DNA of 34,726 nucleotides from an uncultured Gammaproteobacteria bacterium. Lineage in GTDB: Bacteria; Patescibacteriota; Patescibacteriia; JACRDY01. The position numbers and the translations under genes are program-made. The first letter of the stretch is position 1; every line of letters starts with the position of its first letter. Positions 871-27,569 of the stretch are shown in pieces. The stretch is taken from assembly GCA_964523165.1 (NCBI GenBank), contig CAZFXZ010000003.1, forward strand, positions 1 to 34,726, written 5' to 3'. A model generated the notes under the pieces. The model was not told the origin of the DNA. It did no database searches and was given only the letters and a program-made list of their open reading frames with translations.

Positions 871-3444
871 TTAGTTGAACAAAAAGTTTACTTCGATTGT
901 TTGTTCGGCGCTGTTGCCGACGTCGTCAAAAGCTTTGGCGGTGAGCTGGTGAAAGCCATTAGTTTTGTCGACCAAGGAAATATTGAGACTAAAAGGTGCC
1001 GAGGTGGCGGTGCCCAGCGGACTACCGTCGAGCCAATATTCGACTCGCGTCAAACCGCGATTAGCCGAAGCCGTCACGGTCGCGTTTATAGAGTTGCTGT
1101 TGATGGTCTGGCCGTGGCTGGGAGAGGTGATGGTGATATTGGGTTTGTTGTCGGGAGTGTGAACGTCATCGTATTCTGTTGGGATAGGGTCGTTGCTCTC
1201 GACTAAGCCTTTTTTGGCTACCCATTTTCGGATGCCTTCTTCCCAAGTCCCAAACTGCGGATCAACCAACGGATTTTTGGGCGCTGGTCCGCGCGGATCG
1301 TCTTTATCGACGTAGTACAAAATCGTATGATGTTGAGAAAAGACACGCTCTTCGACGTAGTCGGGCGGTGTTAGCTCGGTGGCCAATTTGCCCGAAGCCT
1401 TGTCGATCTTAATTGGTGCAATGCCGGCAATTTCGCCGCGCAAAACCGGTTTGGTCGCGTCGTTAGCCGGCGGAGCGTTGAAGTATTCGACTGGTTTGTC
1501 AGCCAAAACTTCTTTCATAAATTGATTCCAGATCGGCGCGGCCACCACACTGCCATCGGCGCCGCGTTTCATGGCCGCATTGTCGCTGTTGCCGACCCAG
1601 ACTCCCGTAGCTAAGCTGGGCGTATAGCCCATCGTCCAAGCGTCGTGATAATCGTTGGTCGTGCCGGTTTTGGCGGCCACTGGTCGGCTGCCCAACGTTA
1701 AATAATTATTTTCACCAAAGATATAAGCTCGAGCGGCGTTGTCTGATAGCACGCTAGAAGTTAGGCGAAAAATTTCCGGTGATAAAACTTTTTTGGTTTC
1801 GACTTTTTCTCGTTCAAATAAAACCTTGCCGTTGGCGTCTTGGACTTTCAAAATCGCGACGGGCGGATGATATTCGCCTTCTTGGGCCATGGTCGCAAAA
1901 GCCGCTGTGTGTTCCAAAAGTTTTACTTCACCGCCACCCAAAACTAGAGACAGGCCAAAACGGCTGCGGTCTTTTAATGTCGTGTAGCCCAAGTCTTCAG
2001 CTAATTTTAAAGTATAATCAATGCCGGCTAAATATAATGTTTTGACGGCCGGAATGTTGAGTGAGCCAGCTAAGGCACTGCGCATGCTTACAGGACCGTG
2101 TTCACCGCCATCATAGTTGTGAGGGACGTAGTCCTGCATGTCCGTTTTGAAAACAGTTTCGACGTCATATAGAGTTGTTTCTGGCGTGTAGCCTTTAGAA
2201 AAAGCCGCCGTGTAAACCAAGGGTTTAAATGATGAACCGGGCTGGCGCGGTCGCAAGGCGACGTTGACCTGACCGTCGATATCTTCGTTGAAAAAATCAG
2301 CCGAACCAACCATAGCCATAATGTCGCCGGTCTTAGTGTCCAAAGAAACTAGGGCGGCATTACCGGCGTTGTATTTATCTTTATTATTTTGCCAATGATC
2401 AGCCACCGATTTTTCCGCCGCTTTTTGATAATCGACATCTAGTGTGGTCGTCACGCGCAATCCGCCTTCTTCGACAAAAGTTTCGCCGTATTGCTCAGCT
2501 AATAACTCGCGCACATACATGACAAAATGTGGCGCGATTAAACTTTCTTCTTTGGGTTTGAATTTTATCTCTTCGGCTTTGGCGGCGGCGGCTTGGTCTT
2601 TGCTAATATGATCAAATTTTACCAAACGATCCAAAATCCATTCTTGCCTGGCTTTTAATTCGTCGAGATGACTACCGTAGGGTGAAAAATAAGTTGGACG
2701 TTGTGGAATACCGGCCAACATTGCCGCTTCGGCTAGAGTTAAGTCTTTGGCTGATTTATCGAAAAAAGTTTGGGCGGCGGCTTCGATGCCGTAAACCACC
2801 GAGCCGTAGGGAATTTCGTTGAAATAAAGTTGTAAAATTTCGTCTTTGGCGAATTTCTTTTCGATCCGATAGGCTAAAATCAATTCTTTAAACTTGCGAA
2901 TGATGCTCCGTTCGTTGGTCAAGATAGCGTTTTTGACAAATTGTTGAGTGATGGTGCTGCCGCCCCGTTGTGGCCCGATGCCGATAGTGGCAAATCCGGC
3001 CTTGACGATACCACCAACGTCAAAACCTGAGTGGTTGTAAAAATTATCATCTTCGGCCACAATGCTGGCCCATTTAACATAGTCGGGCAAATCTTGAAGC
3101 TTGATCAGCTTGCGATTGATGTCGCCGTGTATTTGATACAAAACAGTTTCTTCTTTGCGATCCAAAATGGTTGTGCTTTGCTCGATGTTTCTTTCCAAAA
3201 GTTTTTGTGGGTCGGGCAAAAGACGTGATGTCCAAGCGTATAAAATCACCAAGCCAAAAAAGCCCACCACGGCCAAAATTAGGCCGGCAGAAATGGCGTA
3301 GTTGGTTAGCAGCTTGATTTGTTCACGACGATTGTGTTGCTGGTATGACAAACGACTAATTTTCCAACGACGTTTTTTGCCCAAACGACTGGGTTTGTCC
3401 AAGTCGTTGTGGGACTGAATGCGATTGAGTTGATTTAAAGGCAT
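871..3444 (-). CDS. ponA: Class A penicillin-binding protein (PBP1A-type transglycosylase/transpeptidase) with an extra C-terminal beta-rich domain
   Basis: 857-aa ORF with an N-terminal TM anchor. GT51 motifs: EDDNFYNHSGFD, GGSTITQQ, RKFKE. Transpeptidase motifs: SSFKP (SxxK), SLN (SxN), KTGTT (KTG). The last ~90 aa look like an Ig-like appendage. Confidence 0.93.
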   Translation of the reverse strand: MPLNQLNRIQSHNDLDKPSRLGKKRRWKISRLSYQQHNRREQIKLLTNYAISAGLILAVVGFFGLVILYAWTSRLLPDPQKLLERNIEQSTTILDRKEETVLYQIHGDINRKLIKLQDLPDYVKWASIVAEDDNFYNHSGFDVGGIVKAGFATIGIGPQRGGSTITQQFVKNAILTNERSIIRKFKELILAYRIEKKFAKDEILQLYFNEIPYGSVVYGIEAAAQTFFDKSAKDLTLAEAAMLAGIPQRPTYFSPYGSHLDELKARQEWILDRLVKFDHISKDQAAAAKAEEIKFKPKEESLIAPHFVMYVRELLAEQYGETFVEEGGLRVTTTLDVDYQKAAEKSVADHWQNNKDKYNAGNAALVSLDTKTGDIMAMVGSADFFNEDIDGQVNVALRPRQPGSSFKPLVYTAAFSKGYTPETTLYDVETVFKTDMQDYVPHNYDGGEHGPVSMRSALAGSLNIPAVKTLYLAGIDYTLKLAEDLGYTTLKDRSRFGLSLVLGGGEVKLLEHTAAFATMAQEGEYHPPVAILKVQDANGKVLFEREKVETKKVLSPEIFRLTSSVLSDNAARAYIFGENNYLTLGSRPVAAKTGTTNDYHDAWTMGYTPSLATGVWVGNSDNAAMKRGADGSVVAAPIWNQFMKEVLADKPVEYFNAPPANDATKPVLRGEIAGIAPIKIDKASGKLATELTPPDYVEERVFSQHHTILYYVDKDDPRGPAPKNPLVDPQFGTWEEGIRKWVAKKGLVESNDPIPTEYDDVHTPDNKPNITITSPSHGQTINSNSINATVTASANRGLTRVEYWLDGSPLGTATSAPFSLNISLVDKTNGFHQLTAKAFDDVGNSAEQTIEVNFLFN

Positions 3445-3481: not shown

Positions 3482-3509
3482 TTGACAACAAGTCGCAATG
3501 TTTTATACT
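3482..3509 (+). promoter_or_regulatory. Sigma70-type promoter for the GC-rich orphan gene
   Basis: TTGACA (3482-3487), 16-nt spacer, TATACT (3504-3509). It is followed by GGGAGG (3524-3529) and ATG at 3535. Confidence 0.6.
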
Positions 3510-3534
3510 GCGGCTATCTTTTTGGGAGGCTGAC

Positions 3535-4068
3535 ATGCACACGCACACGCCGGAAGCTCGTCGGGCCAAGCTTTTGGGGGATATCGACAGGTCGGTTTTG
3601 CCTGAAGGTGAAAAAACCGCCCTGAAAAATTTCCTGACATCTTGGGATCTGGCCAGCGCTCAGGATGCCGCCAACAAACTATTTTCCTATCTGGTTGTTT
3701 GGCTGGCTGGTTGGTCGTTCGTCGATCAAGACGACATGAAAGCGATCCGTCGACAAACGGTCCGAGTTCGCGAGGCGAAAATCAAAAAAACTCGTCATCG
3801 CACGAGTCAAAAAAATGTCCTGAGACCACATCTGCTGGCTCGGGCCGTTGGTCGGACGATGTGGTACACTTTGCGAGCCATCACCATCAAACGTTTGAGT
3901 GGCTGGACCGGCGAACAAGACACGATTGTCGTTGTCAAAACCGCCGTGGCTCTCAAGGTTTGGGACTATCGTCGCTCCGACAAGTGGCACGACCAAGAAT
4001 GGCTGATCGAGGCCACGGCCGCCTGGCTGCTGGTCTTCGAAGGCATGTTTTACGCTCAGAAATCCTGA
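3535..4068 (+). CDS. Hypothetical protein (GC-rich orphan 1, Trp-rich, no recognised domain)
   Basis: The ORF track gives 3457-4068 from a TTG start. I prefer ATG 3535 because the promoter lies at 3482-3509 and a GGGAGG SD box sits 5 nt upstream. The overlapping ORFs 3642-4106(+) and 3679-3996(-) are GC-driven shadows. Confidence 0.6.
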   Translation: MHTHTPEARRAKLLGDIDRSVLPEGEKTALKNFLTSWDLASAQDAANKLFSYLVVWLAGWSFVDQDDMKAIRRQTVRVREAKIKKTRHRTSQKNVLRPHLLARAVGRTMWYTLRAITIKRLSGWTGEQDTIVVVKTAVALKVWDYRRSDKWHDQEWLIEATAAWLLVFEGMFYAQKS

Positions 4069-4090
4069 TGTTTTGTCAGGATTTTTTTAT
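4061..4090 (+). terminator. Intrinsic terminator hairpin shared by convergent genes
   Basis: AATCCTGA (4061-4068), loop TGTTTTG, TCAGGATT (4076-4083), then a TTTTTAT run. The TGA stop of 3535-4068 lies in the left arm. The stop of the minus-strand ORF 4076-5014 lies in the right arm. On the minus side only TTT follows the stem. Confidence 0.6.
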
Positions 4091-5014
4091 TGGCCCAAAC
4101 AGTTGATCTAAAATATCTTGGCCGGGTTGTTGGGCGCGACCAAAATGCGGGAAATGATGTATGCGCAAACCCGGATCGGCGTTGACTTCAATGATCCGAC
4201 CAAAAGATTTTTTTATATCCGGCGAGATGACATCGATACCAACGACGGCTAGGTTTAAAAATTTGGCCACCGCCACGGCCTGAGCTTTGATCCGAGCGGG
4301 GAGTTGATCTGTCACGTCAACGGTCGTGCCGCCAGTGTGTAAATTGGCGGTCTTGCGCAGGTAGATAATCCGGTCTTTGACCGGCCGACTGGTCAAAGTC
4401 AAATGCTGTTCTTTGAGAAATTTTTTAGTCAAAGCGTCTTTGGGGATCTCGACTTTATAAATTAGTTTGGCCTGATTTTTTTGATCAATGAGTTGACTGA
4501 CTGTTTGTTGTCCGTCGCCAACGACATAGGCCGGCAAGCGCAAGATGCTGTAAACTTTTTGATAGTTGATGACCAAAAGGCGATAGTCTCGGCCGACCAG
4601 CATTTTTTCGACCAAAAAACTTTTTTTGTTAATTAGCTTAATGGCTTGACGCAAAGCTTGGGGTGTCGTGATATCAACGCTGATATTTTTACCTTGCTTA
4701 GACGATAATGGTTTGACGACAACGCGACGATGCTGGCGCAAAAATTTTTGCGCTTCGGCTAGGTGGTGGCAATATTTATTGAGGGCTGTCGGGAAGCCTC
4801 CGGCTTTTAGTAAGGCGATGGTGGCATATTTGTTTTTGGCGATCAGAGCTGATGCCGCGCCACTTTGGTCGCTCAAGACTCCGCCTAGGACTAAGCGATT
4901 TTTTTTACCTTGGCTAAACAAATAAAAGTTACCCAGCGGATCGAGACGCTTTATTTTGAGGCCACGGTCTTTAGCCAGTTTGGCCAAAAAGGCTGAATAA
5001 GGATTGCCGGTCAC
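4076..5014 (-). CDS. ATP-grasp ligase resembling the cyanophycin synthetase G-domain (paralog 2)
   Basis: 312 aa with a GTG start. VVVKPLSSKQGKNI, YRLLVINYQKVYSILRLPAYVVGDGQQTVSQLIDQKN, LRKTANLHTGGTTVDVTD and IIEVNADPGLRIHHFP are colinear with the ATP-grasp domain of CphA. No Mur-ligase-like domain is present. Confidence 0.7.
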   Translation of the reverse strand: MTGNPYSAFLAKLAKDRGLKIKRLDPLGNFYLFSQGKKNRLVLGGVLSDQSGAASALIAKNKYATIALLKAGGFPTALNKYCHHLAEAQKFLRQHRRVVVKPLSSKQGKNISVDITTPQALRQAIKLINKKSFLVEKMLVGRDYRLLVINYQKVYSILRLPAYVVGDGQQTVSQLIDQKNQAKLIYKVEIPKDALTKKFLKEQHLTLTSRPVKDRIIYLRKTANLHTGGTTVDVTDQLPARIKAQAVAVAKFLNLAVVGIDVISPDIKKSFGRIIEVNADPGLRIHHFPHFGRAQQPGQDILDQLFGPIKKS

Positions 5015-5017
5015 AAA

Positions 5018-6037
5018 TTATTTTTTCTTAGTTTTGGTTTCCGGGAAAAGCAGATCAATGATGGCGCCGGCGGCATCGCGTTGTTTGCCTTGATAAGGAT
5101 CGTGGTGCATCGAGACCATCGGCGAATCATTGAGTTCGATGATTATATATTGACCACGTTTTGGCGCTTTGGTCACGTCGGTGGTCAAAAAATCAATGCC
5201 AGCATAAGCTAGACCGGGGATGGCTCGGATGGTTTTGACCGCCAATTTTTTTACGGCCGGATGGACAGCGGTGGTCACATCAATACTATCGCCACCGGTA
5301 GACAGATTAGAGTTGCGACGCAAAAAAACAAACTGCCCAACTTGGGGTTTGGACCGCAAAGATAGTTTTTGTTCACGCAGGACGCGCTTGACTTCATCGT
5401 CGACGGTGATGCCGACTAAGGCGTGACCGTGATCAAAACCCCGACGCGGATCGCTATTTTTTATTTTGATCAATTCTTTAATGTTGTGATTACCGTCACC
5501 AATGACGTTGGCTGGTATGCGATGCGTTGCGGCTACAAATTTTTCTCGAGTGGCAAAAATCCGATATTCCAAACCCTTGAACTCTTTTTCCACCAAAAAA
5601 TGAGCATAGCGGGCCGCGACTTGCTTGATGGCCTTGGCTGTTTGCTTGGCGTCGTTAAGCCCAACAAACACCATTTTGCCTTGGATGCCGTCATGAGGTT
5701 TAACGACGACCGGAAAACCGATTTTTTTAGCATAAGCCAAAGCTTGATCGGCTTGACGTCGTCGAAAGGTTTGACCTTGAGCGGTGGCGATGCCATTTTT
5801 TTCCAGCAAGACTTTGGTGGCTTGTTTGTTTTTGGTCAGCCAATAAGCCACCGAGCCGGTTTGGTTGATGCGTTGGCCGACGATCACCTCAAAATGTTTT
5901 TTGTATTGCAGCTCGACCAAACTATGCTTGGCAAAAACGCCGCTGCTAAACATTTTTTTTACTTTGACACCTCGGCGTTCGGCTTCGGCGGCGATCAGAT
6001 AAGTGCTGTAGTGATTAAAATTACTTCTTTTTAGCAT
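5018..6037 (-). CDS. ATP-grasp ligase resembling the cyanophycin synthetase G-domain (paralog 1)
   Basis: 339 aa. LIAAEAERRGVKV, NKQATKVLLEKNGIATAQG, IGFPVVVKPHDGIQGKMVFVGL, RIPANVIGDGNHNIKELIKIKNSDPRRG, LRRNSNLSTGGDSIDVT and IIELNDSPMVSMHH give a CphA-like order of motifs. Confidence 0.72.
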   Translation of the reverse strand: MLKRSNFNHYSTYLIAAEAERRGVKVKKMFSSGVFAKHSLVELQYKKHFEVIVGQRINQTGSVAYWLTKNKQATKVLLEKNGIATAQGQTFRRRQADQALAYAKKIGFPVVVKPHDGIQGKMVFVGLNDAKQTAKAIKQVAARYAHFLVEKEFKGLEYRIFATREKFVAATHRIPANVIGDGNHNIKELIKIKNSDPRRGFDHGHALVGITVDDEVKRVLREQKLSLRSKPQVGQFVFLRRNSNLSTGGDSIDVTTAVHPAVKKLAVKTIRAIPGLAYAGIDFLTTDVTKAPKRGQYIIIELNDSPMVSMHHDPYQGKQRDAAGAIIDLLFPETKTKKK

Positions 6038-6872
6038 AAAGTCTGTGCAGGTAATTAATTATTTGGCCGGCCACGTCAATTTTTGTCACAGCCGTTAGTC
6101 TTTTAAATTTGGGACAACGATTTACTTCCAAGACTACCGCTTGGCCGGCCTGATCGACCATGATGTCGACGCCGGAAATGTCAAAACCCATGACTTGATG
6201 AGCGTGTCGAGCTAGGTCGGTGACATTTTTTGGTAAAATCGTTTTGTGGGCTCGATCCGACAATGATAATCCGGGATGTTGGCTCTGGTAGTGTAAACTA
6301 AAACGTCGCAAACCGCCAATTACTTGTGAGCCAACCATAAAGACTCGATAGTAATAATCACCGGCGATAAATTTTTGCCAGACAAAACGTCTTAGAGGTA
6401 GCGGTTTGTTTTTAAGCCAATTTTGCGCGGCTGGCCAATCCGGTAAAATAAAAACATGGCGACCGTGCATACCTTCTATATCTTTAGCCACGATTGGCCA
6501 ACCGATCCGAGAAAGCTTTTTTTGATTACAGTCGGACTGACGGCCAAAATGAATGGTGGTTGGGATGGCAACGTGATGTCGTTTGAGTTTTTGATACATC
6601 GCCAGTTTGTTAAAGCCCGGCCAGCCATCAGTCAGGATTTGGTCGACAATCAGGATTTTGTGGTGACGTAAAAATTTTAAAACGCTGGCGGTCTGGCGAT
6701 CGTGAGGCACGACACCGCGGATCAAGGCCATGTCATAATCCAGAGCAATCTTTTTTAACAAGGCGGTGTCGAGGACAGAAATAATTTTGGCCGTATGTCC
6801 GGCCTGACGAGCGGCCCGGACTAAAAGCTTATTTTCGACTGAAGTTGTCGGACCGACGATGAGAATTTTCAT
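6021..6872 (-). CDS. RimK-type ATP-grasp ligase (short form)
   Basis: 283 aa. GWPIVAKDIEGMHGRHVFIL, YYYRVFMVGSQVIGGLRRF and DISGVDIMVDQAGQAVVLEVNRCPKF fit the RimK family. It overlaps the next gene by 17 nt. Confidence 0.65.
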   Translation of the reverse strand: MKILIVGPTTSVENKLLVRAARQAGHTAKIISVLDTALLKKIALDYDMALIRGVVPHDRQTASVLKFLRHHKILIVDQILTDGWPGFNKLAMYQKLKRHHVAIPTTIHFGRQSDCNQKKLSRIGWPIVAKDIEGMHGRHVFILPDWPAAQNWLKNKPLPLRRFVWQKFIAGDYYYRVFMVGSQVIGGLRRFSLHYQSQHPGLSLSDRAHKTILPKNVTDLARHAHQVMGFDISGVDIMVDQAGQAVVLEVNRCPKFKRLTAVTKIDVAGQIINYLHRLYAKKK

Positions 6873-6873
6873 A

Positions 6874-8295
6874 CTATTTTTTAGTCGGGTCGATGAAAAA
6901 ATATTTCAAGTCTTTGCGGCCGATGATCATCGAGTAATTAAGTTGGGTGCGCTCGGCGATACTGACGACCGATTCGATCTTTTTACCGCCCAAGTTGAAA
7001 GACAAATTGACGGCCGGTCGAATAGTTTGACCGTTGGCCGAATAAACTATTTTGACGCTGGCGATGTCGGGGTTTATCAAGCGCAGTTCGTTGGTTAGCT
7101 GGGCGTCAAAATATTTTACTTCCTCGCGATCAAAATCCACCGGCTTGGGAAAATTGTCAAAGTCGGTTAGAAGTTTTTCGTAACCTAATTTTTTAGCCAA
7201 CTCGCGATCAATTGACGACGAGTCGGCGCCCGTGTCTATTTTGGCATTGACCAAATGTTTTTCGCCGGTTTGCGGATGAAAGATGGCGACTTTTTCGATC
7301 CGACCAATGACTTTGCGACCGGAAATTTCTTGGACTTCTTTTTCGATAACATTGCCAAACAAATCTTTGGCGATCTGAATAGCCTTGTTGTGATTGTTGA
7401 CCTTCAAACCCTCGACGCGCTGTAGGCGTAAATACAGAGGAGCCAAATTGGCGTTTTGGATACTCAGGCCCGGTCGGGCGTTAACTTCCAAAATTACCGG
7501 ACCGTGCTCTTTGTCAAAAGCAATGTCGATGCCGGCAAAACCCAAGCCGACAGCTTGGGCCGCTTCCAAAGCCAAGTGCAAAACGCGATCCCAGTTGGGG
7601 ATTTGCAAACCGCGTAATTTCAAATTAGTCCCGGGCAAAGTTTCGATCGGTCGCTCAAACCATTTGCCCTTGATGACGGCGTTTGTCGTTTGACCGGTGG
7701 CGATATCTAAACCGATACCAATACCACCCTGACTTAAATTGGCTCGGCCGCCGGATTTGCGAGTCGGTAGGCGAAACATGGCCATGATTGGGATGTTGTT
7801 GTAGACGATAACGCGAATATCGGGCAGGCCCTTGTGAGCATAAAGTTTGAAATCAGGATCAAGCTTGAGTCTTTCTTCAAAAAAGGCGACATCAGGTAAA
7901 CTGGCTTTATTAAATTCACCGTCGAGAATGTCTAAGATGTGACGAAACAAATCGTCGCGACTCATTTCTTGTCCGCCCAAACGAACCCAATTACCATTTT
8001 TCTTTTGGCCGTAGGCGATAACAATACCTTCGCCCATCATGCCCAAGGCCGGCTTTAAGACAAAACTTTTGGGCAACTTGTCCCAGTCAAAATTAAACAA
8101 ATCAACACGACGCCTAATGACGGCGATGGTTTTGGGTACCGGGACCTTGGCTTTGATCAAAACTTTTTTAGTCTGAAGTTTGTGGTCGGCAATTTGAATA
8201 GCGTCGGCAAAATTGTTGGGCCGCAAAAACAGCAAACTACGAGCGTTGATGCCCAGCAAGTTATTGCTGGGGTTGAGTTTGTTTAGCATGGGCAA
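6874..8295 (-). CDS. RimK-related alpha-L-glutamate-ligase-like ATP-grasp fused to a C-terminal retropepsin-like (PF05618-type) domain
   Basis: The N-terminal ~320 aa carry GLPDIRVIVYNNIPIMAMFRLPTRKSGGRANLSQGGIGIGLD and ILEVNARPGLSIQNAN, as I recall for TIGR02291/PF14397-type ligases. The C-terminal ~140 aa carry AKIDTGADSSSI (a DTGA aspartic-protease signature) and IIGRKDLKYFFIDP. The track start at 8295 is TTG. ATG at 8289 (MLNKLNP...) is the more likely start. Confidence 0.72.
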   Translation of the reverse strand: MPMLNKLNPSNNLLGINARSLLFLRPNNFADAIQIADHKLQTKKVLIKAKVPVPKTIAVIRRRVDLFNFDWDKLPKSFVLKPALGMMGEGIVIAYGQKKNGNWVRLGGQEMSRDDLFRHILDILDGEFNKASLPDVAFFEERLKLDPDFKLYAHKGLPDIRVIVYNNIPIMAMFRLPTRKSGGRANLSQGGIGIGLDIATGQTTNAVIKGKWFERPIETLPGTNLKLRGLQIPNWDRVLHLALEAAQAVGLGFAGIDIAFDKEHGPVILEVNARPGLSIQNANLAPLYLRLQRVEGLKVNNHNKAIQIAKDLFGNVIEKEVQEISGRKVIGRIEKVAIFHPQTGEKHLVNAKIDTGADSSSIDRELAKKLGYEKLLTDFDNFPKPVDFDREEVKYFDAQLTNELRLINPDIASVKIVYSANGQTIRPAVNLSFNLGGKKIESVVSIAERTQLNYSMIIGRKDLKYFFIDPTKK

Positions 8296-9796
8296 TGATA
8301 TCGCGAAAACGGATGTATTCGATAAGACGCAAACCGCTCCAGCGACCGATTAAGAAATTGATCAAGATGGTTAGCAAGACCAGCTCGGGATAGCCCAACA
8401 ACAGCGTCCGAAAGATTTCCCAACTGGCAATGACATAACAAACTATCGACAAAGCCAAAGTTTCAACCGTCAGCTTGATAGCCGTCTGACTGCCTTGGTC
8501 GATTTGCGCGGCGATAAATTTTTCCGTCAAAACAACTAGTAATAAAATAGGGAAGATTGATAAGTTGGTAATTGTCGGTTGATCTAAAACGGTCCCGACA
8601 AAGAGCAAGAAGAAAATTACCAAACTGATAATTATCAAAACCAGGGCCATGCGAGGCATGTACAGCAAGCGAATGCGTTTGCCGGCTAAACGGGTAGCCG
8701 TACCAGCCGCCAAGATGATGACAAAAAACAACAAACCAAGCTGCAGGCCGGTAGCTAAAAATGACAAAGTGATAATGGTTGACGGATAAATACCAAAAGT
8801 TTTTAAGCCGATGATTTGACGAGCAAAGGCGATAATCGTGGCGATGACTGGTACGATCAAGATCAAAAATATGGTATTGAGAGCTACGCCCTGATTGACC
8901 ATATATTGGACGGCTTGCGACATGATGCCAAGTTTGCCAAAAAACGAATCACCGGCTTTGCTGTGCACGCCAATGATTTGATATTCCGAATCGGTGGTTT
9001 TTAGTTGATTGATCAGCTTGTCGGTGTCGGTGGTGCTGATCAAAGCATTGATGGCCGGCTCTTTAGCGACAATGACAAAGCGCGGTTTGAGTAAGTCAAA
9101 CAAGTTTTGCGCGATTTTGCGAGTCGCGGTTGGGCTTTGATCGCTGACGATCGCCAAGTTTTTGTTTTGCCAACCGTATTCGGCCGTGCTTTTTTGTGGA
9201 TCTTCAAGATTGGCCAAAACTTGGGCGGCTTCGACCAAAGCGTTTTGCCCGACCGTGCCAGCTGTCCAAGCGATGATCGATGAAGCCAGCTTGACGTTTT
9301 CTTTATTATCCCAAAACTGTTGGGCTAATTGTTTTTCGATGATATAGCCGGGCTGGTCGTCGAGGTTTGTAATATTTATTAGCAAAACATTTTGCGTATT
9401 AGCGTATTCACGCAAACTAGCCAGCTTATCTTGATTGATTGATTTGTCGGTCAAGAGTAAGACAATATCTTTTTCGACCGAGACAATAGTTTCGTCGGTA
9501 TTGAGATTTTGGCCGTCGCTGACTGTTAGTCGGACCTTGTAAGTACCGGGCGCGCGATAACTGTGGCTGACTTCCAAACCTTCGGCGCGATTGCCGTCAC
9601 CAAATTCCCAACGATAAGTCAGCGGTTTGTTTTGCTCGGTCGTCGAGTTGGCGGCCGAAAAAACGATTTGTCGATTAACTAAAACGTTACGATCGTCGCC
9701 GGCGTTGGCGGTGATAGTATTAAAATTTTGGGCGCCAACCAAACTGGGTAACAACAACCAAATTGTCAGAGTGACGGCTAGAAAAATTTTTTTCAT
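8261..9796 (-). CDS. Secreted PKD-domain protein with a C-terminal 7-TM module (the type usually fused to an inactive transglutaminase)
   Basis: Signal peptide MKKIFLAVTLTIWLLLPSLVGAQ. PKD motif YRWEFGDGNRAEG...HSYRAPGTYKVRLTVSDG. An unassigned region of ~190 aa follows, then about seven hydrophobic helices ending in GRWSGLRLIEYIRFRD. It overlaps the next gene's start by ~29-35 nt. Confidence 0.65.
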   Translation of the reverse strand: MKKIFLAVTLTIWLLLPSLVGAQNFNTITANAGDDRNVLVNRQIVFSAANSTTEQNKPLTYRWEFGDGNRAEGLEVSHSYRAPGTYKVRLTVSDGQNLNTDETIVSVEKDIVLLLTDKSINQDKLASLREYANTQNVLLINITNLDDQPGYIIEKQLAQQFWDNKENVKLASSIIAWTAGTVGQNALVEAAQVLANLEDPQKSTAEYGWQNKNLAIVSDQSPTATRKIAQNLFDLLKPRFVIVAKEPAINALISTTDTDKLINQLKTTDSEYQIIGVHSKAGDSFFGKLGIMSQAVQYMVNQGVALNTIFLILIVPVIATIIAFARQIIGLKTFGIYPSTIITLSFLATGLQLGLLFFVIILAAGTATRLAGKRIRLLYMPRMALVLIIISLVIFFLLFVGTVLDQPTITNLSIFPILLLVVLTEKFIAAQIDQGSQTAIKLTVETLALSIVCYVIASWEIFRTLLLGYPELVLLTILINFLIGRWSGLRLIEYIRFRDIIAHAKQTQPQQ

Positions 9797-9799
9797 ATT

Positions 9800-10288
9800 T
9801 TATTTATGAGGGATCAAAGCGGGACTATGAGCGCAAGTAATGGCGATGGCCAAAGCGTCGGCGGCGTCGTCGGGTTGCGGGATGGTTTGGAGTCGGAGAA
9901 GGGCGGCCACCATTTTTTGCACTTGTTTTTTGTCGGCCTGACCAAACGAAGTAATGGCTTGTTTGACCTGTAGGGGTGTGTATTCGCTGATCGGTAGTTT
10001 ATGACGTTGACCAAGAAGTAGTATCACGCCTCGAGCCTGACCGACGGCCAGAGCGGTTGTGACATTTTTGGCAAAAAATAATTCTTCAATGGCTAGTTTG
10101 TCGGGCTGATATTTTTTTATTAATTTTTCAAAATCATCAGCGATCGTCATGAGTCTTTGGGCCAAAGGTTGTTTGGCTGGCGTACTTATGACACCGTAAG
10201 CCACGGCCGTGATAGAGCTGGTGGTTTGTTTGATAACGCCCCAGCCGGTGGTGGCCACGCCCGGATCAATACCGATGATCGTGGGCAT
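9800..10288 (-). CDS. ruvC: Crossover junction endodeoxyribonuclease RuvC
   Basis: 162 aa. IIGIDPGVATTGWGVI at the N-terminus and a typical RuvC length and C-terminus (DAADALAIAITCA). Confidence 0.9.
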   Translation of the reverse strand: MPTIIGIDPGVATTGWGVIKQTTSSITAVAYGVISTPAKQPLAQRLMTIADDFEKLIKKYQPDKLAIEELFFAKNVTTALAVGQARGVILLLGQRHKLPISEYTPLQVKQAITSFGQADKKQVQKMVAALLRLQTIPQPDDAADALAIAITCAHSPALIPHK

Positions 10289-10297
10289 AATTAAATT

Positions 10298-11017
10298 TTA
10301 ATAGTTAACGTTGCAAAAAACTTCCGTCACGTCTTCGTCGTCAGACAGGGCCTCAACGATTTGCTTGATGATTTCCGTTGTCGGCTCGTCGAGATCGAGG
10401 GTTTCGTTGGCGATAAATTCCAAATTGTCTTGTTCGATTTTATAGCCGGCGTTTATCAGTCGATCTTTGACTTGATTAAGTTCTGATGGAGCGGTCATGA
10501 CAATAACGGTTTGATCTTCGACAATGACGTCTTGAGCTCCGGCTTCGATAGCTGCCAATTCGGCTTTGTCGGTGTCGGTAGTTTCAGCCAAAATGATCAG
10601 GCCGCGCTGACTAAACATCCAAGCCACGCTGTTGGGTCCGCCCAAGCTGCCACCATGGCGAGTAAAAATATGCTTGATTGACGCCACGGTCCGATTGCGA
10701 TTGTCCGTCAAAGTTTTGACATAAAAAGCGCTGCCGGCCGGACCAAAACCTTCATAGGCTATTTCTTCGATTTGTACGCCGTCGCTGTTTTCGCCCGTAC
10801 CGCGTTTGACGGCTCGATCGATGTTGTCTTTGGGCATGTTGGCCGCTCGGGCCTTGTCGATAGCCAAACGCAATTTAAAATTAGTATCAGGATCGCCACC
10901 CAATTCTTGAGCTGCCAAAGTGATAGCTTTGGCTAGTTTGGTAAAAGCGCTGGCGCGTTTGGCGTCAGCGGCAAATTTTTGGCGTTTAGTCGTCGCCCAC
11001 TTACTGTGTCCAGACAT
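10298..11017 (-). CDS. yebC: YebC/PmpR family DNA-binding transcriptional regulator
   Basis: 239 aa. MSGHSKWATTKRQKFAADAKRA is the family-defining N-terminus. The gene sits 9 nt upstream of ruvC. Confidence 0.9.
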   Translation of the reverse strand: MSGHSKWATTKRQKFAADAKRASAFTKLAKAITLAAQELGGDPDTNFKLRLAIDKARAANMPKDNIDRAVKRGTGENSDGVQIEEIAYEGFGPAGSAFYVKTLTDNRNRTVASIKHIFTRHGGSLGGPNSVAWMFSQRGLIILAETTDTDKAELAAIEAGAQDVIVEDQTVIVMTAPSELNQVKDRLINAGYKIEQDNLEFIANETLDLDEPTTEIIKQIVEALSDDEDVTEVFCNVNY

Positions 11018-11064: not shown

Positions 11065-11099
11065 GAAAAAAATAAAAAAGCGAGAAATGATTTTCTCGC
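11065..11099 (-). terminator. Intrinsic terminator after orphan 2
   Basis: The minus strand reads GCGAGAAA, loop ATCA, TTTCTCGC, then TTTTTTATTTTTTT. Confidence 0.7.
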
Positions 11100-11110
11100 G
11101 TTGAACGCTC

Positions 11111-11599
11111 TTATCCGCTGATAATGATATAGTTGCCTTGGCGGTTGTCCTGACGATGACGCCGCTTTTTCTCGTCAACCCGATCGTGCCAACGAGCCAT
11201 GGTATCGAAGCGGTCGCATCGTGCCACTTCCACGCCGAGTTCTTCGAGTCGCGTTGCGACTCTCCAAACTTCTTTGTGCCAGTCGTTGATCCACGGACCA
11301 CGACGATCCATGAAGTCTCGCATGGCTTCGACGTCGTCGGGCCGGTTTTGGACCAGCCAGCGGGCCCAAGCGGGGATGACCGCGTTGTAGAGCGTGTCGT
11401 ACTGTTGGTTTATTTCGGAGAAGCGATAGGCTTCCCAGAATTCCTCGGGCGACCGGGCTTTGGCCGCCGCTTCCTTGATCAGGCGACGATACTTTTTGCC
11501 GATCGGATATGTCGTCCAGTCAAACATGAGGATCATGTTGACGCGGCCGTTGATGATCCGATTGGCCTCGTCCCGGATTTCTGCAAATGTGCGTGACAT
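11111..11599 (-). CDS. Hypothetical protein (GC-rich orphan 2, Trp/Arg-rich)
   Basis: 162 aa. GGGGGAGGAG lies directly upstream of the ATG. It has its own terminator. The opposite-strand ORF 11138-11596 is a shadow. Confidence 0.6.
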   Translation of the reverse strand: MSRTFAEIRDEANRIINGRVNMILMFDWTTYPIGKKYRRLIKEAAAKARSPEEFWEAYRFSEINQQYDTLYNAVIPAWARWLVQNRPDDVEAMRDFMDRRGPWINDWHKEVWRVATRLEELGVEVARCDRFDTMARWHDRVDEKKRRHRQDNRQGNYIIISG

Positions 11600-11708: not shown

Positions 11709-12296
11709 TTATTTCTGTTGAACTGCCTGCGATTTGCGGGCCTTGGTCAGGCGCTGTCGTAGCTCATTGAGCTGGGGATGGTGGTCGGCGAGCTCGGCCG
11801 CCTGCACCGCCCTGGCGAGTCGCTTGGAGTCATCGTCGACCAGCCCGACGAGCTTGTCGATGACATCGCGATGGGCGCGCATCGCATTATACTGGACCTG
11901 GTACGAGGTGCACCAGGGGCAGACGTGGATGAAAACGCTCTCCCACTCCTGCCAGGTCGTCGCCCGCTTTTTCATCCCCTCGTAGACCTCGGGGAAGTAG
12001 TCGGCGCCACCTTCCATGGTCTGGCAGAGGCTCACCCAGTCCGCGAACGTCTTGGTCTGCCGAATGGCACGCCTGACGATCTTTTTCACCGCTCTCGTCA
12101 CTGGCCAGTGATAGTCGCGGATGTGGTCCCACTGGTAATACCGGTAGACGGCCAGGCACTGCTCAAGAGTGTCAGTGCGCGGCAGTACCTTCCTCATGGA
12201 GAACGAACGCTGTACGTCGAGAGAAGCGCTCTCTCGTCGGCCGATGGCGGCCGCCAGATCGGGGAACGCCTCCGCGAGCGTCAGGACTCTGTCCAT
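11709..12296 (-). CDS. Hypothetical protein (GC-rich orphan 3; contains CPWC)
   Basis: The track gives 11709-12308. The first ATG is part of ATGGAGGGTTCCATG, so GGAGGG acts as an SD box for the second ATG (complement of 12294-12296). The opposite-strand ORF 11778-12392 is a shadow. Confidence 0.6.
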   Translation of the reverse strand: MDRVLTLAEAFPDLAAAIGRRESASLDVQRSFSMRKVLPRTDTLEQCLAVYRYYQWDHIRDYHWPVTRAVKKIVRRAIRQTKTFADWVSLCQTMEGGADYFPEVYEGMKKRATTWQEWESVFIHVCPWCTSYQVQYNAMRAHRDVIDKLVGLVDDDSKRLARAVQAAELADHHPQLNELRQRLTKARKSQAVQQK

Positions 12297-12326
12297 GGAA
12301 CCCTCCATTGGTTAGGACGTCCTTTA

Positions 12327-15509: not shown

Positions 15510-17082
15510 AGAAAAGAAAGAAAGAAATGTCGTTTGCTTGATCATCATCGGGCTGATACTTTTAAGCGTTGCTCCGCAATTAATTGGGGCATGGCGAGCC
15601 AATGACGAATATGTTTTTACCGGGACAAATTTCACTCAAACTTACGATTATCCTGTCTATTTGTCGTCGATCGAACAAGCCCGCCAAGGAAATTTTTTAT
15701 CACTTAATCTGTATACATCTGAAAATCAACGCGCGGTGTTGTTTAGTCCGTTGTGGTGGGTGTTGGGCAATATTAGTCGTCTGACAACGTTATCGCCGAT
15801 CATAATCTTTCATCTGGCTCGGGCTTTGTCGGGCGGTTTGTTGTTGGCGGCTCTTTACTGGTTGACCGGCAAAATGTTTGCCGATAGTCGTCAGCGTCTT
15901 ATGGCTTTGTTGGTGGTGGGGGCCAGCTCTGGTTGGGGAACTTGGGCTTTTTTGCAATCCGGAGCCTTGCAAAGTTGGTCGGAAATTTTTTATCGGGCAC
16001 CGATTGATTTGTGGGTGTCGGAAGCTAACACTTTTTTGACGCTTTACCATTCGCCACTCTTTATCGTCAGTCAATTATTGTTGGTGGTCATAATGTTTTC
16101 TTGGCTAGAAAAAAAGTATCAATGGTGGTTGCCGTTGGCCAGTGGCCTGTTGGCGCTTTTGCACCCCTATGATGTTTTTATTGTCACTGTCGTAGGCGGC
16201 CTGTGGTTGATTGGGCAAATTTTTTATAAAACAACGACTCGCCAACAACTGGTCAATTTGACATTAACAGCCGCGGGTATCGTACCAGTGATTTTTTATT
16301 ATCAACACTTTGTTTTAACGGAAAGTGTCATGGCCGGTTGGGCGGCGCGCAACATCACCTTGACCCCGCCCTTGATAAATTGGTTGTTGGGCTATGGCTG
16401 GCTCATCCCCTTGGCCGTTATCGGTCTGGTGAAAATAAAAAAAGACATTAATCAGTGTTGGCTGATGATAATATTGTGGTTAGTCAGCGCTGTTTTATTG
16501 TTAAGCGCGCCTCTAGATATTGCCAGACGTTTTAGCAATGGTTTGCATATCCCCTTAAGCTTATTGGCCGCGCGCGGTGGTTGGGACATATTATTGTTTT
16601 TAAAAAATCGTTTTGTCTGGCGGGCGATTTTTATTTGGATTGTGGGCGGCGGATTATTTTTAACCAATATAACTATTGTGGCTCAAGATATTTATAGTTA
16701 TCAAAATTACACTTTGCCAAATTATTTACCCCAAGATTATTACAATGGCGCGCGCTGGCTAGCCAACAACACTTTGGTCGATAGTGCGATCTTGGCTGAA
16801 CCCAGTCTGGGTAATTTGCTGCCGGCTTTTAGCGGCCGACGAGTTTTTGTCGGGCATGGTCATCAAACGATTGATTTTGAAAAAAAATCTCAAGCTTGGC
16901 AAGATTTTTTGTCGAGCAACGATGATGATGAACATAAAAAAAATTGGCTACACCAAATGGGAGTTGACTATTTGTGGTTTGATCAACAAACTGCCAAAAC
17001 CAGCTCATTTTTGCCCGGACAAAAAAAATACTTACAGCCGGCGTGGATCAGTCCAAGCTTGACTATTTATCGTCTAGAGTAA
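15496..17082 (+). CDS. Polytopic membrane protein with a C-terminal extracytoplasmic domain, GT-C-like (family not assigned)
   Basis: 528 aa with many TM helices followed by a ~130-aa soluble tail. It overlaps the upstream gene by 14 nt. Confidence 0.45.
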   Translation: MPLFKEKKERNVVCLIIIGLILLSVAPQLIGAWRANDEYVFTGTNFTQTYDYPVYLSSIEQARQGNFLSLNLYTSENQRAVLFSPLWWVLGNISRLTTLSPIIIFHLARALSGGLLLAALYWLTGKMFADSRQRLMALLVVGASSGWGTWAFLQSGALQSWSEIFYRAPIDLWVSEANTFLTLYHSPLFIVSQLLLVVIMFSWLEKKYQWWLPLASGLLALLHPYDVFIVTVVGGLWLIGQIFYKTTTRQQLVNLTLTAAGIVPVIFYYQHFVLTESVMAGWAARNITLTPPLINWLLGYGWLIPLAVIGLVKIKKDINQCWLMIILWLVSAVLLLSAPLDIARRFSNGLHIPLSLLAARGGWDILLFLKNRFVWRAIFIWIVGGGLFLTNITIVAQDIYSYQNYTLPNYLPQDYYNGARWLANNTLVDSAILAEPSLGNLLPAFSGRRVFVGHGHQTIDFEKKSQAWQDFLSSNDDDEHKKNWLHQMGVDYLWFDQQTAKTSSFLPGQKKYLQPAWISPSLTIYRLE

Positions 17083-21769: not shown

Positions 21770-22795
21770 ATGATTACTTCTGACGATCGTCTGGTCGCTC
21801 CCAGTGAAGCCGATAATGAAATCGAGCTCGAGGTCGGTTTGCGGCCTAAAACTTTAGCTGAATATGTCGGCCAACAAAAGATCAAAAACAATCTAGAGAT
21901 TTTTATGGCCGCGGCCAAAAAACGTGGCGAGCCGCTTGAGCATGTTTTGCTTTATGGTCCGCCGGGCTTGGGTAAAACCACCTTGGCTCACATCATTGCC
22001 AGTGAAATGGGGGCTAATATTCGCGTGACTTCCGGTCCGGCGATTGAACGCTCGGGCGACCTAGCGGCCATTTTGACCAATTTAGCCGATGGCGATGTCT
22101 TGTTTATCGACGAAATTCATCGTCTAAATAAAGTTGTGGAAGAAATATTGTATCCGGCCATGGAAGATTACGCTCTAGATATTGTCATCGGCAAAGGACC
22201 GTCGGCCAAAACCTTGCGCTTGGCTTTGCCAAAATTTACGATCATTGGCGCTACGACCAAAGTTGGCTCGCTGTCATCGCCGTTGCGCGATCGTTTTGGC
22301 AATATTTATCATTTGGATTTTTATCAAGATGATGAAATTGAAAAAATTATTAAACGATCAGCCAAAATATTAAACATTGATTGTCAGCCAGCCGCCGGCG
22401 CGCTGATCGCCAGTCGGGCTCGCAAGACGCCGCGCATCGCCAACCGCTTACTCAAACGCGTCCGCGACTTTGCGGAAATCAAAGGCAGTGGCACGATCAC
22501 CGTCGAGTCAACCAATCAAGCTTTGGATATGCTTGAGGTTGATGGTTTTGGTTTGGACGCTGTCGATCGTCGTTTGCTCGAAGTCATCATTGATAAATTT
22601 GCCGGTGGGCCGGTCGGTCTGGGCACAATCGCGGCGGCCATCTCCGAAGAGGTTGAAACCATCGAAGATGTTTATGAGCCGTTTTTAATGCAAATGGGTT
22701 TTTTGTCACGCACGCCGCGGGGACGCATGGCCACGGATTTGGCTTACAGTCATCTGGGTCGTCACAAGACGGCTACGCAAAAAATGATCATTTGA
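21770..22795 (+). CDS. ruvB: Holliday junction branch migration helicase RuvB
   Basis: 341 aa. [12 protein letters not shown], Walker [21 protein letters not shown], and the winged-helix C-terminus. It ends with TGA. Confidence 0.95.
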
Positions 22796-25052: not shown

Positions 25053-25053
25053 G

Positions 25054-27393: not shown

Positions 27394-27569
27394 GGAGAGG
27401 TGGCTGCCCGCTCGTCAGAGCGAGCGGGTCCGCTCACGGCTTTGCCGATGAGCGGAAGTGGTCGAAAGGTTGTTTTATTTTGGAGAGGTGGCTGCCCGCT
27501 CGTCAGAGCGAGCGGGTCCGCTCACGGCTTTGCCGATGAGCGGAAGTGGTCGAAAGGTTGTTTTATTTT
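27394..27569 (+). repeat. Two perfect 88-bp tandem units, each a 5' fragment of tRNA-Ser split by a 50-nt double hairpin
   Basis: Unit layout: GGAGAGGTGGCTG, then CCCGCTCGTCAGAGCGAGCGGG and TCCGCTCACGGCTTTGCCGATGAGCGGA, then AGTGGTCGAAAG, then GTTGTTTTATTTT. The units start at 27394 and 27482, and the real tRNA starts at 27570, in the same 88-nt phase. Confidence 0.85.

Follow-up and report, generated by a model that had tools for sequence, protein, structure and literature searches.

A candidate cytoplasm-facing variant of the Rlo system in Patescibacteria, with a ligase-protease fusion and a variable island of ATP-grasp ligases

We studied five adjacent genes (A to E, positions 4076-9796) in a stretch of 34,726 nucleotides, which we call the window, from an uncultured bacterium that is recorded as Gammaproteobacteria and that GTDB places in the Patescibacteriota (assembly GCA_964523165.1, contig CAZFXZ010000003.1). 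Judged by sequence, genes A and B form the core of this locus and represent a fused, cytoplasm-facing form of the Pseudomonas aeruginosa Rlo system, which consists of a retropepsin (RloA), an inactive transglutaminase joined to a seven-transmembrane (7TM) module (RloB), and an ATP-grasp ligase (RloC) (Lormand et al., mBio 2025, PMC12239564). The fusion of the ligase to the retropepsin, beside the gene for a 7TM protein, is the standard form in Patescibacteria. Only genes A and B are fixed, while the accessory ATP-grasp genes depend on the lineage. Our tentative reading, which we hold with somewhat less than even confidence, is that the module, docked at the membrane, uses its ligase to build and its protease to trim Glu-rich peptide chains that are destined for the cell envelope, and that the accessory ligases diversify these chains.

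Results

A ligase fused to a retropepsin-like protease

A reading of this DNA that was made from the letters alone (the sequence-only reading) had listed five open reading frames (ORFs) on the minus strand, and ORF calling confirmed all of them along with their overlaps and gaps. Genes A and B overlap by 35 nucleotides if B begins at TTG 8295 or by 29 if it begins at ATG 8289; B and C are separated by 1 nucleotide, C and D overlap by 17, and D and E are separated by 3. The genes and their parts are:

8261-9796, minus strand: gene A, 511 amino acids; signal peptide, PKD domain, alpha/beta ectodomain, and 7TM domain; RloB-like membrane module (PF14402)
9731-9796, minus strand: putative N-terminal signal peptide or anchor helix of A, residues 1-22, MKKIFLAVTLTIWLLLPSLVGA; AlphaFold2 (AF2) helix at 2-19
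9473-9709, minus strand: PKD domain of A, residues 30-108, predicted to be extracytoplasmic (Pfam and Foldseek)
8897-9469, minus strand: Rossmann-like alpha/beta ectodomain of A, residues 110-300; alternating beta and alpha elements in the AF2 model, predicted local distance difference test (pLDDT) about 85-90
8276-8881, minus strand: 7TM bundle of A, residues 306-486, with a basic C-terminal amphipathic helix (PF14402 and AF2 helices)
6874-8295, minus strand: gene B, 473 amino acids, alternative start ATG 8289; RloC-type ATP-grasp ligase and RimB/RloA-type retropepsin-like protease
7351-8238, minus strand: ATP-grasp ligase domain of B, residues 20-315; K81, D257, and E270/N272 are invariant columns in a 30-sequence alignment
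7300-7350, minus strand: interdomain linker of B, residues 316-332; disordered (pLDDT <50), conserved, and Glu-rich
6898-7299, minus strand: retropepsin-like domain of B, residues 333-466, with a catalytic DTGA (profile search against the PDB)
6021-6872, minus strand: gene C, 283 amino acids; divergent RimK/LysX-family ATP-grasp ligase; accessory and lineage-variable
5018-6037, minus strand: gene D, 339 amino acids; stand-alone ATP-grasp ligase that resembles the G domain of cyanophycin synthetase (CphA); accessory
4076-5014, minus strand: gene E, 312 amino acids; second CphA G-domain-like ligase; accessory

The N-terminal part of B scores 207 bits against PF14397 (cut-off 31) and 251 bits against TIGR02291 (model positions 10-303 of 317). 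Because the latter score is under the equivalog cut-off of 314, we consider B to be a homolog of the RloC-type clade and not an equivalog. The top Foldseek matches of the ligase domain are RimK (5zct and 7qys) and ArgX/LysX. Toward its N terminus, B has the conserved motif ILGxNARNL. NCBIfam has named models for the Rlo neighborhood (RloA1-3, RloB, and RimB), and the C-terminal domain of B matches RloA3 at 35 bits, along with PF05618 from Pfam at 31 bits. A plain phmmer search of the whole of B against the PDB missed the protease domain, which a profile of that domain recovered: the RloA structures 9g58 and 9g59 match with E = 4e-8 and a Legionella structure (2pma) with E = 4e-6. The AF2 model of B (pLDDT 81, from a 30-sequence alignment) has three parts, namely the ATP-grasp domain, the linker, and a beta-rich domain. 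Homologs of B number more than 2600 and are mostly from Patescibacteria, with a best identity of 52% in that search.

The residues that bind poly-Glu in RloA appear to be retained. The DTGA motif, which the sequence-only reading had also seen, lies at residues 354-357 of the translation (nucleotides 7225-7236), and K352, D354, R426, and R449 vary little or not at all across 30 homologs. K352, R426, and R449 align to K26, R94, and R117 of 9g58. In 9G58 the aligned positions have a D-to-R spacing of 66 residues and an R-to-R spacing of 23, equal to those of D48, R114, and R137 in RloA, so with a 20-residue offset in numbering, K26/R94/R117 would correspond to K46/R114/R137 of RloA. In RloA, K46, D48, R114, and R137 coordinate poly-Glu, and the R114A and R137A changes abolish function (PMC12239564). 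The protease part of B has no signal peptide and no transmembrane segment, and as it sits within the ligase polypeptide, it should be cytoplasmic rather than secreted.

Could the protease cut its own linker? The family consensus of the linker is LFGGEIEEExEEISGKK, which has at most 3 consecutive Glu. RimB, a cytoplasmic homolog of RloA, cleaves at 6 or more Glu in a row and does not cleave Asp (Little et al., JBC 2025, PMC11957791), and RloA1-3 cleave runs of at least 8 (PMC12239564), so self-cleavage seems unlikely. The linker might instead be a pseudo-substrate or an autoinhibitory segment.

A membrane protein without a transglutaminase

Gene A matches PF14402 across residues 309-500 (103 bits, cut-off 25; Pfam), and its PKD domain matches PKD_4 from Pfam at 78 bits. 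The RloB model from NCBIfam gives 61 bits versus a cut-off of 900, and this match is confined to the C-terminal 7TM part. The 7TM module had been described as of the kind that is usually fused to an inactive transglutaminase. The PKD domain and the 7TM module are both present, but no transglutaminase accompanies them: we found no profile match to one in A (Pfam and NCBIfam), and the ectodomain in the AF2 model (pLDDT 80, from a 41-sequence alignment) does not have that fold. In a Foldseek search with the model of A, the PKD domain was the sole part with a match (target-normalized TM-scores of 0.79-0.88 to the PKD domains of ColG and ColH), while neither the alpha/beta domain nor the 7TM bundle had a relative. 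The alpha/beta domain (residues 110-300) also lacks a Pfam match and a confident match in the PDB. The combination of PKD and 7TM domains is found in a family of at least 238 clusters.

By the positive-inside rule, A would have its N terminus outside and its C terminus inside the cell, and the N-terminal helix may be cleaved as a signal peptide. The C-terminal helix, which is predicted to be cytoplasmic, is conserved and basic (GRWxGLRLxEYIRFR). Across an alignment of homologs, the invariant residues of the 7TM region are Q327, E425, E471, N480, R490, E493, R496, and F497.

A conserved frame around a variable island

We scanned one genome per species for relatives and fetched the best 80 loci, all of which have the Patescibacterial gene order. 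At least 567 species-level genomes encode a relative of B. The common order is yebC, ruvC, the 7TM gene, the fusion gene, a variable island of ligases, and then the gene for PBP1a, a class A penicillin-binding protein. The 7TM gene is immediately upstream of the fusion gene in 80/80 loci, and in 66 of 80 the gap or overlap between them is at most 60 nucleotides, mostly a short overlap. Most of the 7TM proteins (71/80) are about 220 amino acids long and have no ectodomain; the long form with a PKD domain, as in the window, occurs in 9/80. RuvC is encoded upstream in 64/71 loci and YebC in 49/61, while PBP1a is encoded within 10 kb downstream in 48/55 loci, on the same strand in 46.

To describe the islands we used the 54 loci that are bounded by PBP1a. 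Extra ATP-grasp genes, 1-5 per island, are present in 52/54, and RimK-like ATP-grasps account for 94/135 of the island ORFs, with three main families:

YheCD/GshB-like family, about 319 amino acids: 31 loci; no member in the window
RimK-like family: 28 loci; gene C in the window
CphA-G-like family: 20 loci; genes D and E in the window

The composition of the window's island (one RimK-like and two CphA-G-like genes) is found in just 2/54 loci (L010 and L032), though the pair of D and E recurs in related lineages. The closest relative that we found, L081 (fusion protein 79% and PBP1a 73% identical), has the order fusion, D, E, orphan genes, PBP1a, and lacks C. Another locus, L083, has yebC, ruvC, PKD-7TM, fusion, DUF3541, genes that resemble D and E, and PBP1a. 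Islands in other relatives include genes for YdjC deacetylase-like proteins, MATCAP-like carboxypeptidases, GT4, GNAT, and Mur-fold proteins. The Mur-fold genes are closer to the M domain of CphA (189-209 bits) than to MurE (63-78 bits), and they stand alone in the islands of three loci (L012:12398-13666, L074:11480-12739, and L077:14305-15312). CphA G-like and M-like genes are never in the same island across the 54. Some of the island's functions are also fused to the core: we found RloC-retropepsin-YdjC fusions (P0056 and P0113), RloC-retropepsin-MATCAP fusions (L044:10001-12832 and L051:3891-6758), a fusion of a CphA-G-like ligase to a retropepsin (P0356), and proteins with two ATP-grasp domains (L026 and L053).

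The sequence-only reading had presented the locus as an expanded, fused version of the 7TM, ligase, and protease neighborhood, and had proposed asking whether the five genes co-occur. Extra amidoligases do accompany this neighborhood, but that is not special to the locus, as the fusion is standard in Patescibacteria. Genes A and B do stay together, whereas C, D, and E do so as a set only in the two loci mentioned above, and C is missing even from L081. That reading also left out the conserved frame, with PBP1a downstream and yebC and ruvC upstream. In short, it identified the family and the type of chemistry correctly, and it overstated how unusual the locus is and how fixed its five genes are.

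Many of the 80 loci (L001, L010, L015, L024, L029, and others) are in metagenome-assembled genomes that are labelled Gammaproteobacteria, Bdellovibrionales, Micavibrio, or Bathyarchaeia. Given the Patescibacterial gene order, these labels in the public records look like mis-assigned taxonomy.

The accessory ligases

Four of the five genes had been assigned to ATP-grasp ligases of three kinds (TIGR02291-like, short RimK-like, and two CphA G-like), and the profile scores agree. Gene C scores 110 bits on TIGR00768, the model for the RimK family (cut-off 143), and 91 bits on LysX, which is also below the cut-off; its match to RimK in the PDB (7qys) is 50 bits. Gene D scores 295 bits on TIGR02068 at model positions 160-477 and 185 bits on CphA1 from the PDB (7lgn), and it has 686 stand-alone homologs, mostly Patescibacterial. 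Gene E, which BLASTP shows to be a paralog of D with 33% identity, scores 226 bits on TIGR02068 at positions 164-473 and 144 bits on CphA1 (7lgm). D and E also match the C-terminal, ATP-grasp half of the GshAB model (220 and 179 bits versus a cut-off of 425) and the ATP-grasp half of NAGGN synthetase (163 and 190 bits versus a cut-off of 569).

Housekeeping identities were raised as an outcome that would refute the reading, and we reject them. On the RimK equivalog NF007764 (S6--L-glutamate ligase, cut-off 331), B and C score 24 and 45 bits; on Ddl models the four ligases score at most 40 bits (cut-offs >240), and on GshB models at most 21 bits (cut-offs >270), so all are far under the equivalog cut-offs. 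Loss of ATP-binding residues would have been another sign of trouble, but the K, D, and ExN motifs of the ATP-grasp fold are intact in all four. We also reject canonical synthesis of cyanophycin: D and E stop at the G domain, the window's block has no CphA N domain, no Mur-ligase-like M domain, and no Mur-fold gene, and elsewhere the G-like and M-like genes are never together. Profile searches of the block found no glutamate-cysteine ligase, GNAT partner, or cyanophycinase. Finally, a defense-system or phage origin of genes A to E is rejected, as a profile search of the five proteins against PADLOC gave 0 families and the PHROG matches are to generic RimK-like proteins only.

Comparison with known systems

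The combination of 7TM protein, ligase, and protease was described to us as experimentally uncharacterized, which is out of date: it corresponds to RloA, RloB, and RloC, for which genetics, RloA crystal structures, and cleavage of poly-Glu were published in 2025 (PMC12239564). P. aeruginosa depends jointly on the secreted proteases RloA1-3 to survive hypo-osmotic conditions, to tolerate antibiotics, to form biofilms, and to keep its cell shape, and rlo mutants show hypo-osmotic lysis, sensitivity to a beta-lactam (ampicillin), and shape defects (PMC12239564). Deletion of rloB or rloC rescues the lethality of the triple protease deletion (PMC12239564), which implies a product of the ligase and the 7TM protein that has to be cleared by the protease. 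P. aeruginosa rimB has no genetic interaction with the rlo genes (PMC12239564). RloB was reported to be 96% Proteobacterial and the operon to be a Gammaproteobacterial innovation (PMC12239564). In Shewanella, a 7TM-transglutaminase mutant overproduces membrane vesicles. Iyer, Abhiman, Burroughs, and Aravind reportedly predicted, in 2009, a peptide-modification system at the membrane from a 7TM-transglutaminase, an ATP-grasp, and a protease. Most of the Patescibacterial genomes that we examined were not yet available in 2009. A search of the accessible literature for a Patescibacterial form of the module found no description of one.

Like the Rlo system, the window has a PF14402 7TM module, a ligase of the TIGR02291/PF14397 type, and a PF05618 retropepsin in one neighborhood. 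The ligase is predicted to be cytoplasmic and the 7TM module to be in the membrane in both, and the genes are adjacent, with A and B overlapping in what would be one operon. As in RloA, the retropepsin of B has DTGA and the K/R/R positions that bind poly-Glu. There are differences too. In the window the protease is fused to the C terminus of the ligase and has no signal peptide, whereas RloA is secreted and stands alone; A has a PKD domain and an alpha/beta domain in place of RloB's inactive transglutaminase; extra ATP-grasp ligases, three of them in the window, follow the core; the flanks are ruvC and PBP1a; and the host is a Patescibacterium. As far as can be told from the predicted proteins, the module has a ligase of the Rlo clade, the 7TM module of Rlo, and a retropepsin with the catalytic and binding residues, but not the transglutaminase ectodomain or the secreted stand-alone protease.

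The RimK and RimB proteins are a second point of reference. RimB boosts the synthesis of poly-alpha-Glu by RimK, which yields free poly-alpha-Glu in vitro, and in RimBK, an active hybrid that is found mainly in Flavobacteriales, Rhodobacterales, and Desulfotalea, the RimB domain (residues 1-163) is N-terminal to RimK (PMC11957791). Here too a cytoplasmic retropepsin-like protease of a family that is specific for runs of Glu is paired with or fused to a ligase of the RimK superfamily. But in B the protease is C-terminal and is joined to a ligase of the RloC clade, whereas in RimBK it is N-terminal and joined to a true RimK. Furthermore, our module has a 7TM partner, while RimK has none and acts on ribosomal protein S6, whose gene, rpsF, is not in the window. 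As for CphA1 (7LG5, 7LGN, and 7WAC), D and E align along the whole of its G domain, but the N and M domains are absent here, and D and E are stand-alone enzymes of about 310-340 amino acids in a mainly Patescibacterial family.

Discussion

What the module might make

The sequences show how the genes are built, which domains and intact catalytic motifs they encode, that the core is constant and the island variable, and that fusions tie the parts together. What reaction takes place, on which acceptor, what the 7TM protein does, and how the envelope is involved we infer, and our proposal is as follows. The ligase domain of B would dock on the cytoplasmic face of the 7TM protein and, with ATP, would join Glu-type residues to an acceptor through its carboxylate, so that an acidic chain of a few or many alpha-linked amino acids results. 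The fused retropepsin would act as a dimer and cut runs of Glu, so that the chain is limited or recycled. C, which is RimK/LysX-like, and D and E, which are CphA G-domain-like, would add further residues to the C-terminal carboxylate of the peptide, and the 7TM protein would present the product to the cell envelope or export it.

Because the protease family is specific for poly-Glu and the binding residues are kept in B, the chain that is handled is most likely rich in Glu. And because the ligase of B is fused to that protease, has a RimK-like fold, and belongs with the RloC clade, it is most likely the maker of the chain. The universal 7TM partner and the overlap between the 7TM and ligase genes suggest that the reaction occurs at the membrane. 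C, D, and E are from families that extend peptide carboxylates, so they probably add further residues, which would make the product specific to the lineage. The accessory genes do belong with the core, as the ATP-grasp-rich islands and the domain fusions indicate. A link to the envelope is suggested by analogy with the Pseudomonas phenotypes and the Shewanella vesicle phenotype and by the synteny with PBP1a. A peptide or poly-amino-acid product that is handled at the membrane had been suggested from the letters alone, and we keep it as the best reading. A branched polymer was among the products suggested there, but the window has no enzyme like the CphA M domain that would make branches.

Several observations weigh against that reading. 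We are cautious about the synteny with PBP1a because the unrelated ruvC and yebC are equally conserved in the block; the synteny could be inherited gene order with no functional meaning, and in the window a convergent orphan gene (3535-4068, described below) breaks the adjacency of E and PBP1a. We know of no enzyme in the RloC clade with a known product or acceptor, so we are extrapolating the chemistry from RimK and from the specificity of the protease. A transport or scaffold role for the 7TM protein is a guess, as its fold has no solved relative. Because the protease of B is cytoplasmic, the logic of export followed by trimming in Pseudomonas does not carry over as such, and nothing in our data calls for export. 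C and E are just 31-42% identical to their nearest orthologs and seem to be fast-evolving (D is 54-57% identical), and the sequences of C, D, and E do not reveal which substrates these ligases use. Nor do the signals around the genes help. We looked for Shine-Dalgarno motifs before the operon genes and found none upstream of any, so ribosome-binding sites give no argument for coupling, and the promoter and terminator matches in the region equal the counts in shuffled sequence. For these reasons, translational coupling and a single transcript are plausible and no stronger than that.

Alternative explanations

It may be that the ligases act on a precursor of the cell wall. The acceptor would then belong to a precursor of peptidoglycan or of some other glycan that is linked to a lipid or a nucleotide (for example, the stem-peptide carboxylate of lipid II or a de-N-acetylated amino sugar). 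The 7TM protein would hold a lipid-linked substrate, the ligases would attach amino acids or short acidic side chains that differ by lineage, ahead of polymerization by PBP1a, and the retropepsin and MATCAP-like peptidases would edit them. We think this is unlikely, but we take it seriously: PBP1a is directly 3' of the island in most loci (48/55, 46 on the same strand), relatives' islands include YdjC proteins like chitin-disaccharide deacetylases (114 bits), GT4 glycosyltransferases, GNAT proteins, and enzymes with the Mur-ligase fold, and in P0056 and P0113 YdjC is even part of one polypeptide with the RloC ligase and the retropepsin. The Pfam name of PF14397 is "sugar-transfer associated ATP-grasp," the rlo phenotypes of Pseudomonas resemble peptidoglycan defects (PMC12239564), and turnover of genes between lineages inside a fixed frame is typical of surface-structure loci. 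Yet the window's own island has no YdjC, GT4, GNAT, or Mur-like gene, the adjacency of PBP1a may be historical, as it may be for ruvC and yebC, and the Mur-fold genes of relatives are nearer to the M domain of CphA than to MurE. Also, lipid II is not a known substrate of any ATP-grasp enzyme in these clades, and the poly-Glu specificity of the protease family fits the known chemistry of peptidoglycan poorly. If the target were instead the C terminus of a protein (ribosomal, carrier, or membrane), as when RimK and RimB act on S6, the ligases would write Glu or Asp tails, the retropepsin (and, in relatives, MATCAP-like carboxypeptidases) would erase them, and the 7TM protein would be a regulator or an anchor. 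C is in the RimK/LysX family, whose known members act on a C-terminal Glu of a protein (RpsF or LysW), the closest folds to B are those of RimK in complex with RpsF and of ArgX/LysX in complex with LysW, and the protease is cytoplasmic like RimB, with RimBK as an active hybrid of this sort (PMC11957791). Some islands encode MATCAP-like tail carboxypeptidases and proteins with TTL-like profile matches, and MATCAP is fused to the core in L044 and L051. Still, this seems improbable to us: B and C are not orthologs of RimK (24 and 45 bits versus a cut-off of 331), a ribosomal target would not explain the strict pairing with the 7TM gene (80/80 loci), no candidate acceptor with an acidic C terminus is encoded in the block, and in Pseudomonas no genetic interaction links rimB to the rlo genes (PMC12239564).

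The product could also be soluble, either free small peptides (osmolytes of the glutathione, NAGGN, or dipeptide type) or a cytoplasmic storage polymer such as cyanophycin or poly-Asp/Glu, with the 7TM protein in a sensing or minor role. D and E do match the G domain of CphA, the ATP-grasp half of GshAB, and NAGGN synthetase; some islands have stand-alone genes like the CphA M domain; RimK makes free poly-alpha-Glu in vitro, stimulated by RimB (PMC11957791); and the Rlo system is linked to osmotic stress (PMC12239564). We nevertheless give a soluble product little credence, because the window encodes no CphA N or M domain, none of the 54 islands has G-like together with M-like genes, a cyanophycinase, a glutamate-cysteine ligase, and a GNAT partner are all absent from the window, and a universal 7TM partner whose gene overlaps that of the ligase argues for a process at the membrane. 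The simplest view is that there is no functional unit at all, just independent ligases that are neighbors through frozen gene order in small Patescibacterial genomes. In its favor, yebC and ruvC are kept in this block as well although they are clearly unrelated, the promoter and terminator signals are uninformative, and accessory genes are gained and lost among loci. Against it, ligase, retropepsin, YdjC, MATCAP, and CphA-G-like parts occur fused in single polypeptides. The conserved overlap of the 7TM and ligase genes and the predominance of one enzyme class in 52/54 islands also argue for a unit, and genetics has proved this trio to be a unit in Pseudomonas (PMC12239564), so we consider this view to be very improbable indeed.

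What it would mean

The Patescibacterial form widens the reported distribution of Rlo: at least 567 species-level genomes encode a relative of the fusion protein, and 80/80 inspected loci of the Patescibacterial type have the trio, 7TM protein included. In Pseudomonas the Rlo system shapes antibiotic tolerance, biofilm formation, and cell shape, and the Patescibacterial loci are natural experiments on it: they suggest that the transglutaminase domain is dispensable and that the protease can act in the cytoplasm while fused to the ligase. The partners that co-occur with the core or are fused to it (CphA G- and M-like and RimK-like ligases, MATCAP-like proteins, and YdjC) point to peptide-chain chemistry. 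With its place beside the main peptidoglycan synthase and its fast-changing island of ligases, the block is a strong candidate for an envelope feature of the host-attached life of Patescibacteria.

A more ambitious version, which we put forward as an improbable but consequential idea, is that the module is a lineage-variable, non-ribosomal machine that decorates the Patescibacterial cell wall with peptides. ATP-grasp "writers" would put acidic chains on lipid-linked peptidoglycan or glycan precursors that are held by the 7TM protein, the retropepsin and MATCAP-like "erasers" would edit them, and PBP1a would incorporate them. If so, these chains would parallel teichoic acids or variable peptidoglycan side chains, but in peptide form, and the kind of substrate that Rlo handles in Pseudomonas and Vibrio would have a name.

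Boundaries of the gene string and other features of the window

The other features near the module are:

10298-11017, minus strand: yebC; conserved upstream neighbor, 9-nucleotide gap to ruvC (ORF and Pfam)
9800-10288, minus strand: ruvC; conserved upstream neighbor, 3-nucleotide gap to gene A (ORF and Pfam)
11065-11099, minus strand: terminator-like hairpin with a long T-run, upstream of yebC (terminator scan and sequence)
4060-4084, no strand assigned: 9-bp hairpin that holds the TGA stops of both convergent genes (-12.3 kcal/mol, z = -2.65)
3482-4068, plus strand: convergent orphan gene between gene E and PBP1a, with its coding sequence at 3535-4068 (177 amino acids)
871-3444, minus strand: PBP1a, class A penicillin-binding protein; transglycosylase, transpeptidase, and Big_7 domains (Pfam); conserved downstream neighbor

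The five genes had been read as one unit that ends at the hairpin after gene E. They are indeed tightly packed, but the packing continues upstream: given the short gaps to ruvC and yebC and the hairpin upstream of yebC, the co-directional string has seven genes, not five. That upstream hairpin is likely the 5' boundary of the transcription unit, which probably starts at yebC, and ruvC and yebC are probably co-transcribed with A to E while being functionally unrelated to them. The scan for promoters and terminators was uninformative about the limits of the operon, though it did flag the terminator upstream of yebC and a plus-strand promoter at 3482-3509.

This promoter-like site is a near-consensus sigma-70 site (TTGACA-16-TATACT) in front of the orphan gene, which also has a Shine-Dalgarno sequence, GGGAGG, at 3524-3529, 5 nucleotides upstream of its ATG. 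The hairpin at 4060-4084 has a T-run 3' of it on the plus strand only and no U-tail on the minus strand. Given these signals of the orphan gene's own, the hairpin fits best as its terminator, possibly a bidirectional one. The orphan gene has a GC content of 0.515 and a product rich in Trp and Arg, with no match in Pfam, PADLOC, or PHROG, and L081 has a homolog in the same convergent position (49% identity over 65 amino acids). As for PBP1a, a functional link with the module may exist.

Two more orphan ORFs are upstream of yebC, at 11111-11599 and 11709-12308, both on the minus strand. They are rich in Trp and Arg and match no family, their GC contents are 0.56 and 0.615 versus about 0.46 in their neighbors, and neither has a homolog in any of the 80 related loci, so they look like lineage-specific inserted DNA. 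The orphan ORFs of the window are unrelated to each other and to anything in the 80 loci, except for the single homolog in L081.

Farther away, a gene for a large serine recombinase (27563-29194, minus strand; Resolvase, Recombinase, and Zn-ribbon domains) overlaps with its 3' end a tRNA-Ser(CGA) gene at 27570-27659 on the plus strand. This region may be a mobile element that integrated at the tRNA gene. The GC content of the window falls to 0.36-0.42 at 32-34 kb. Other envelope genes are at 23631-26286 (plus strand), 17063-18988 (minus strand), and 21770-22795 (plus strand); the window's envelope genes include a Wzx-like polysaccharide flippase that adjoins a Wzy_C (O-antigen-ligase-like) protein, and a DUF2079 membrane protein. 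A DUF2079 gene is near the module in L083 as well. The ruvB gene is on the strand opposite to that of ruvC, some 12 kb away.

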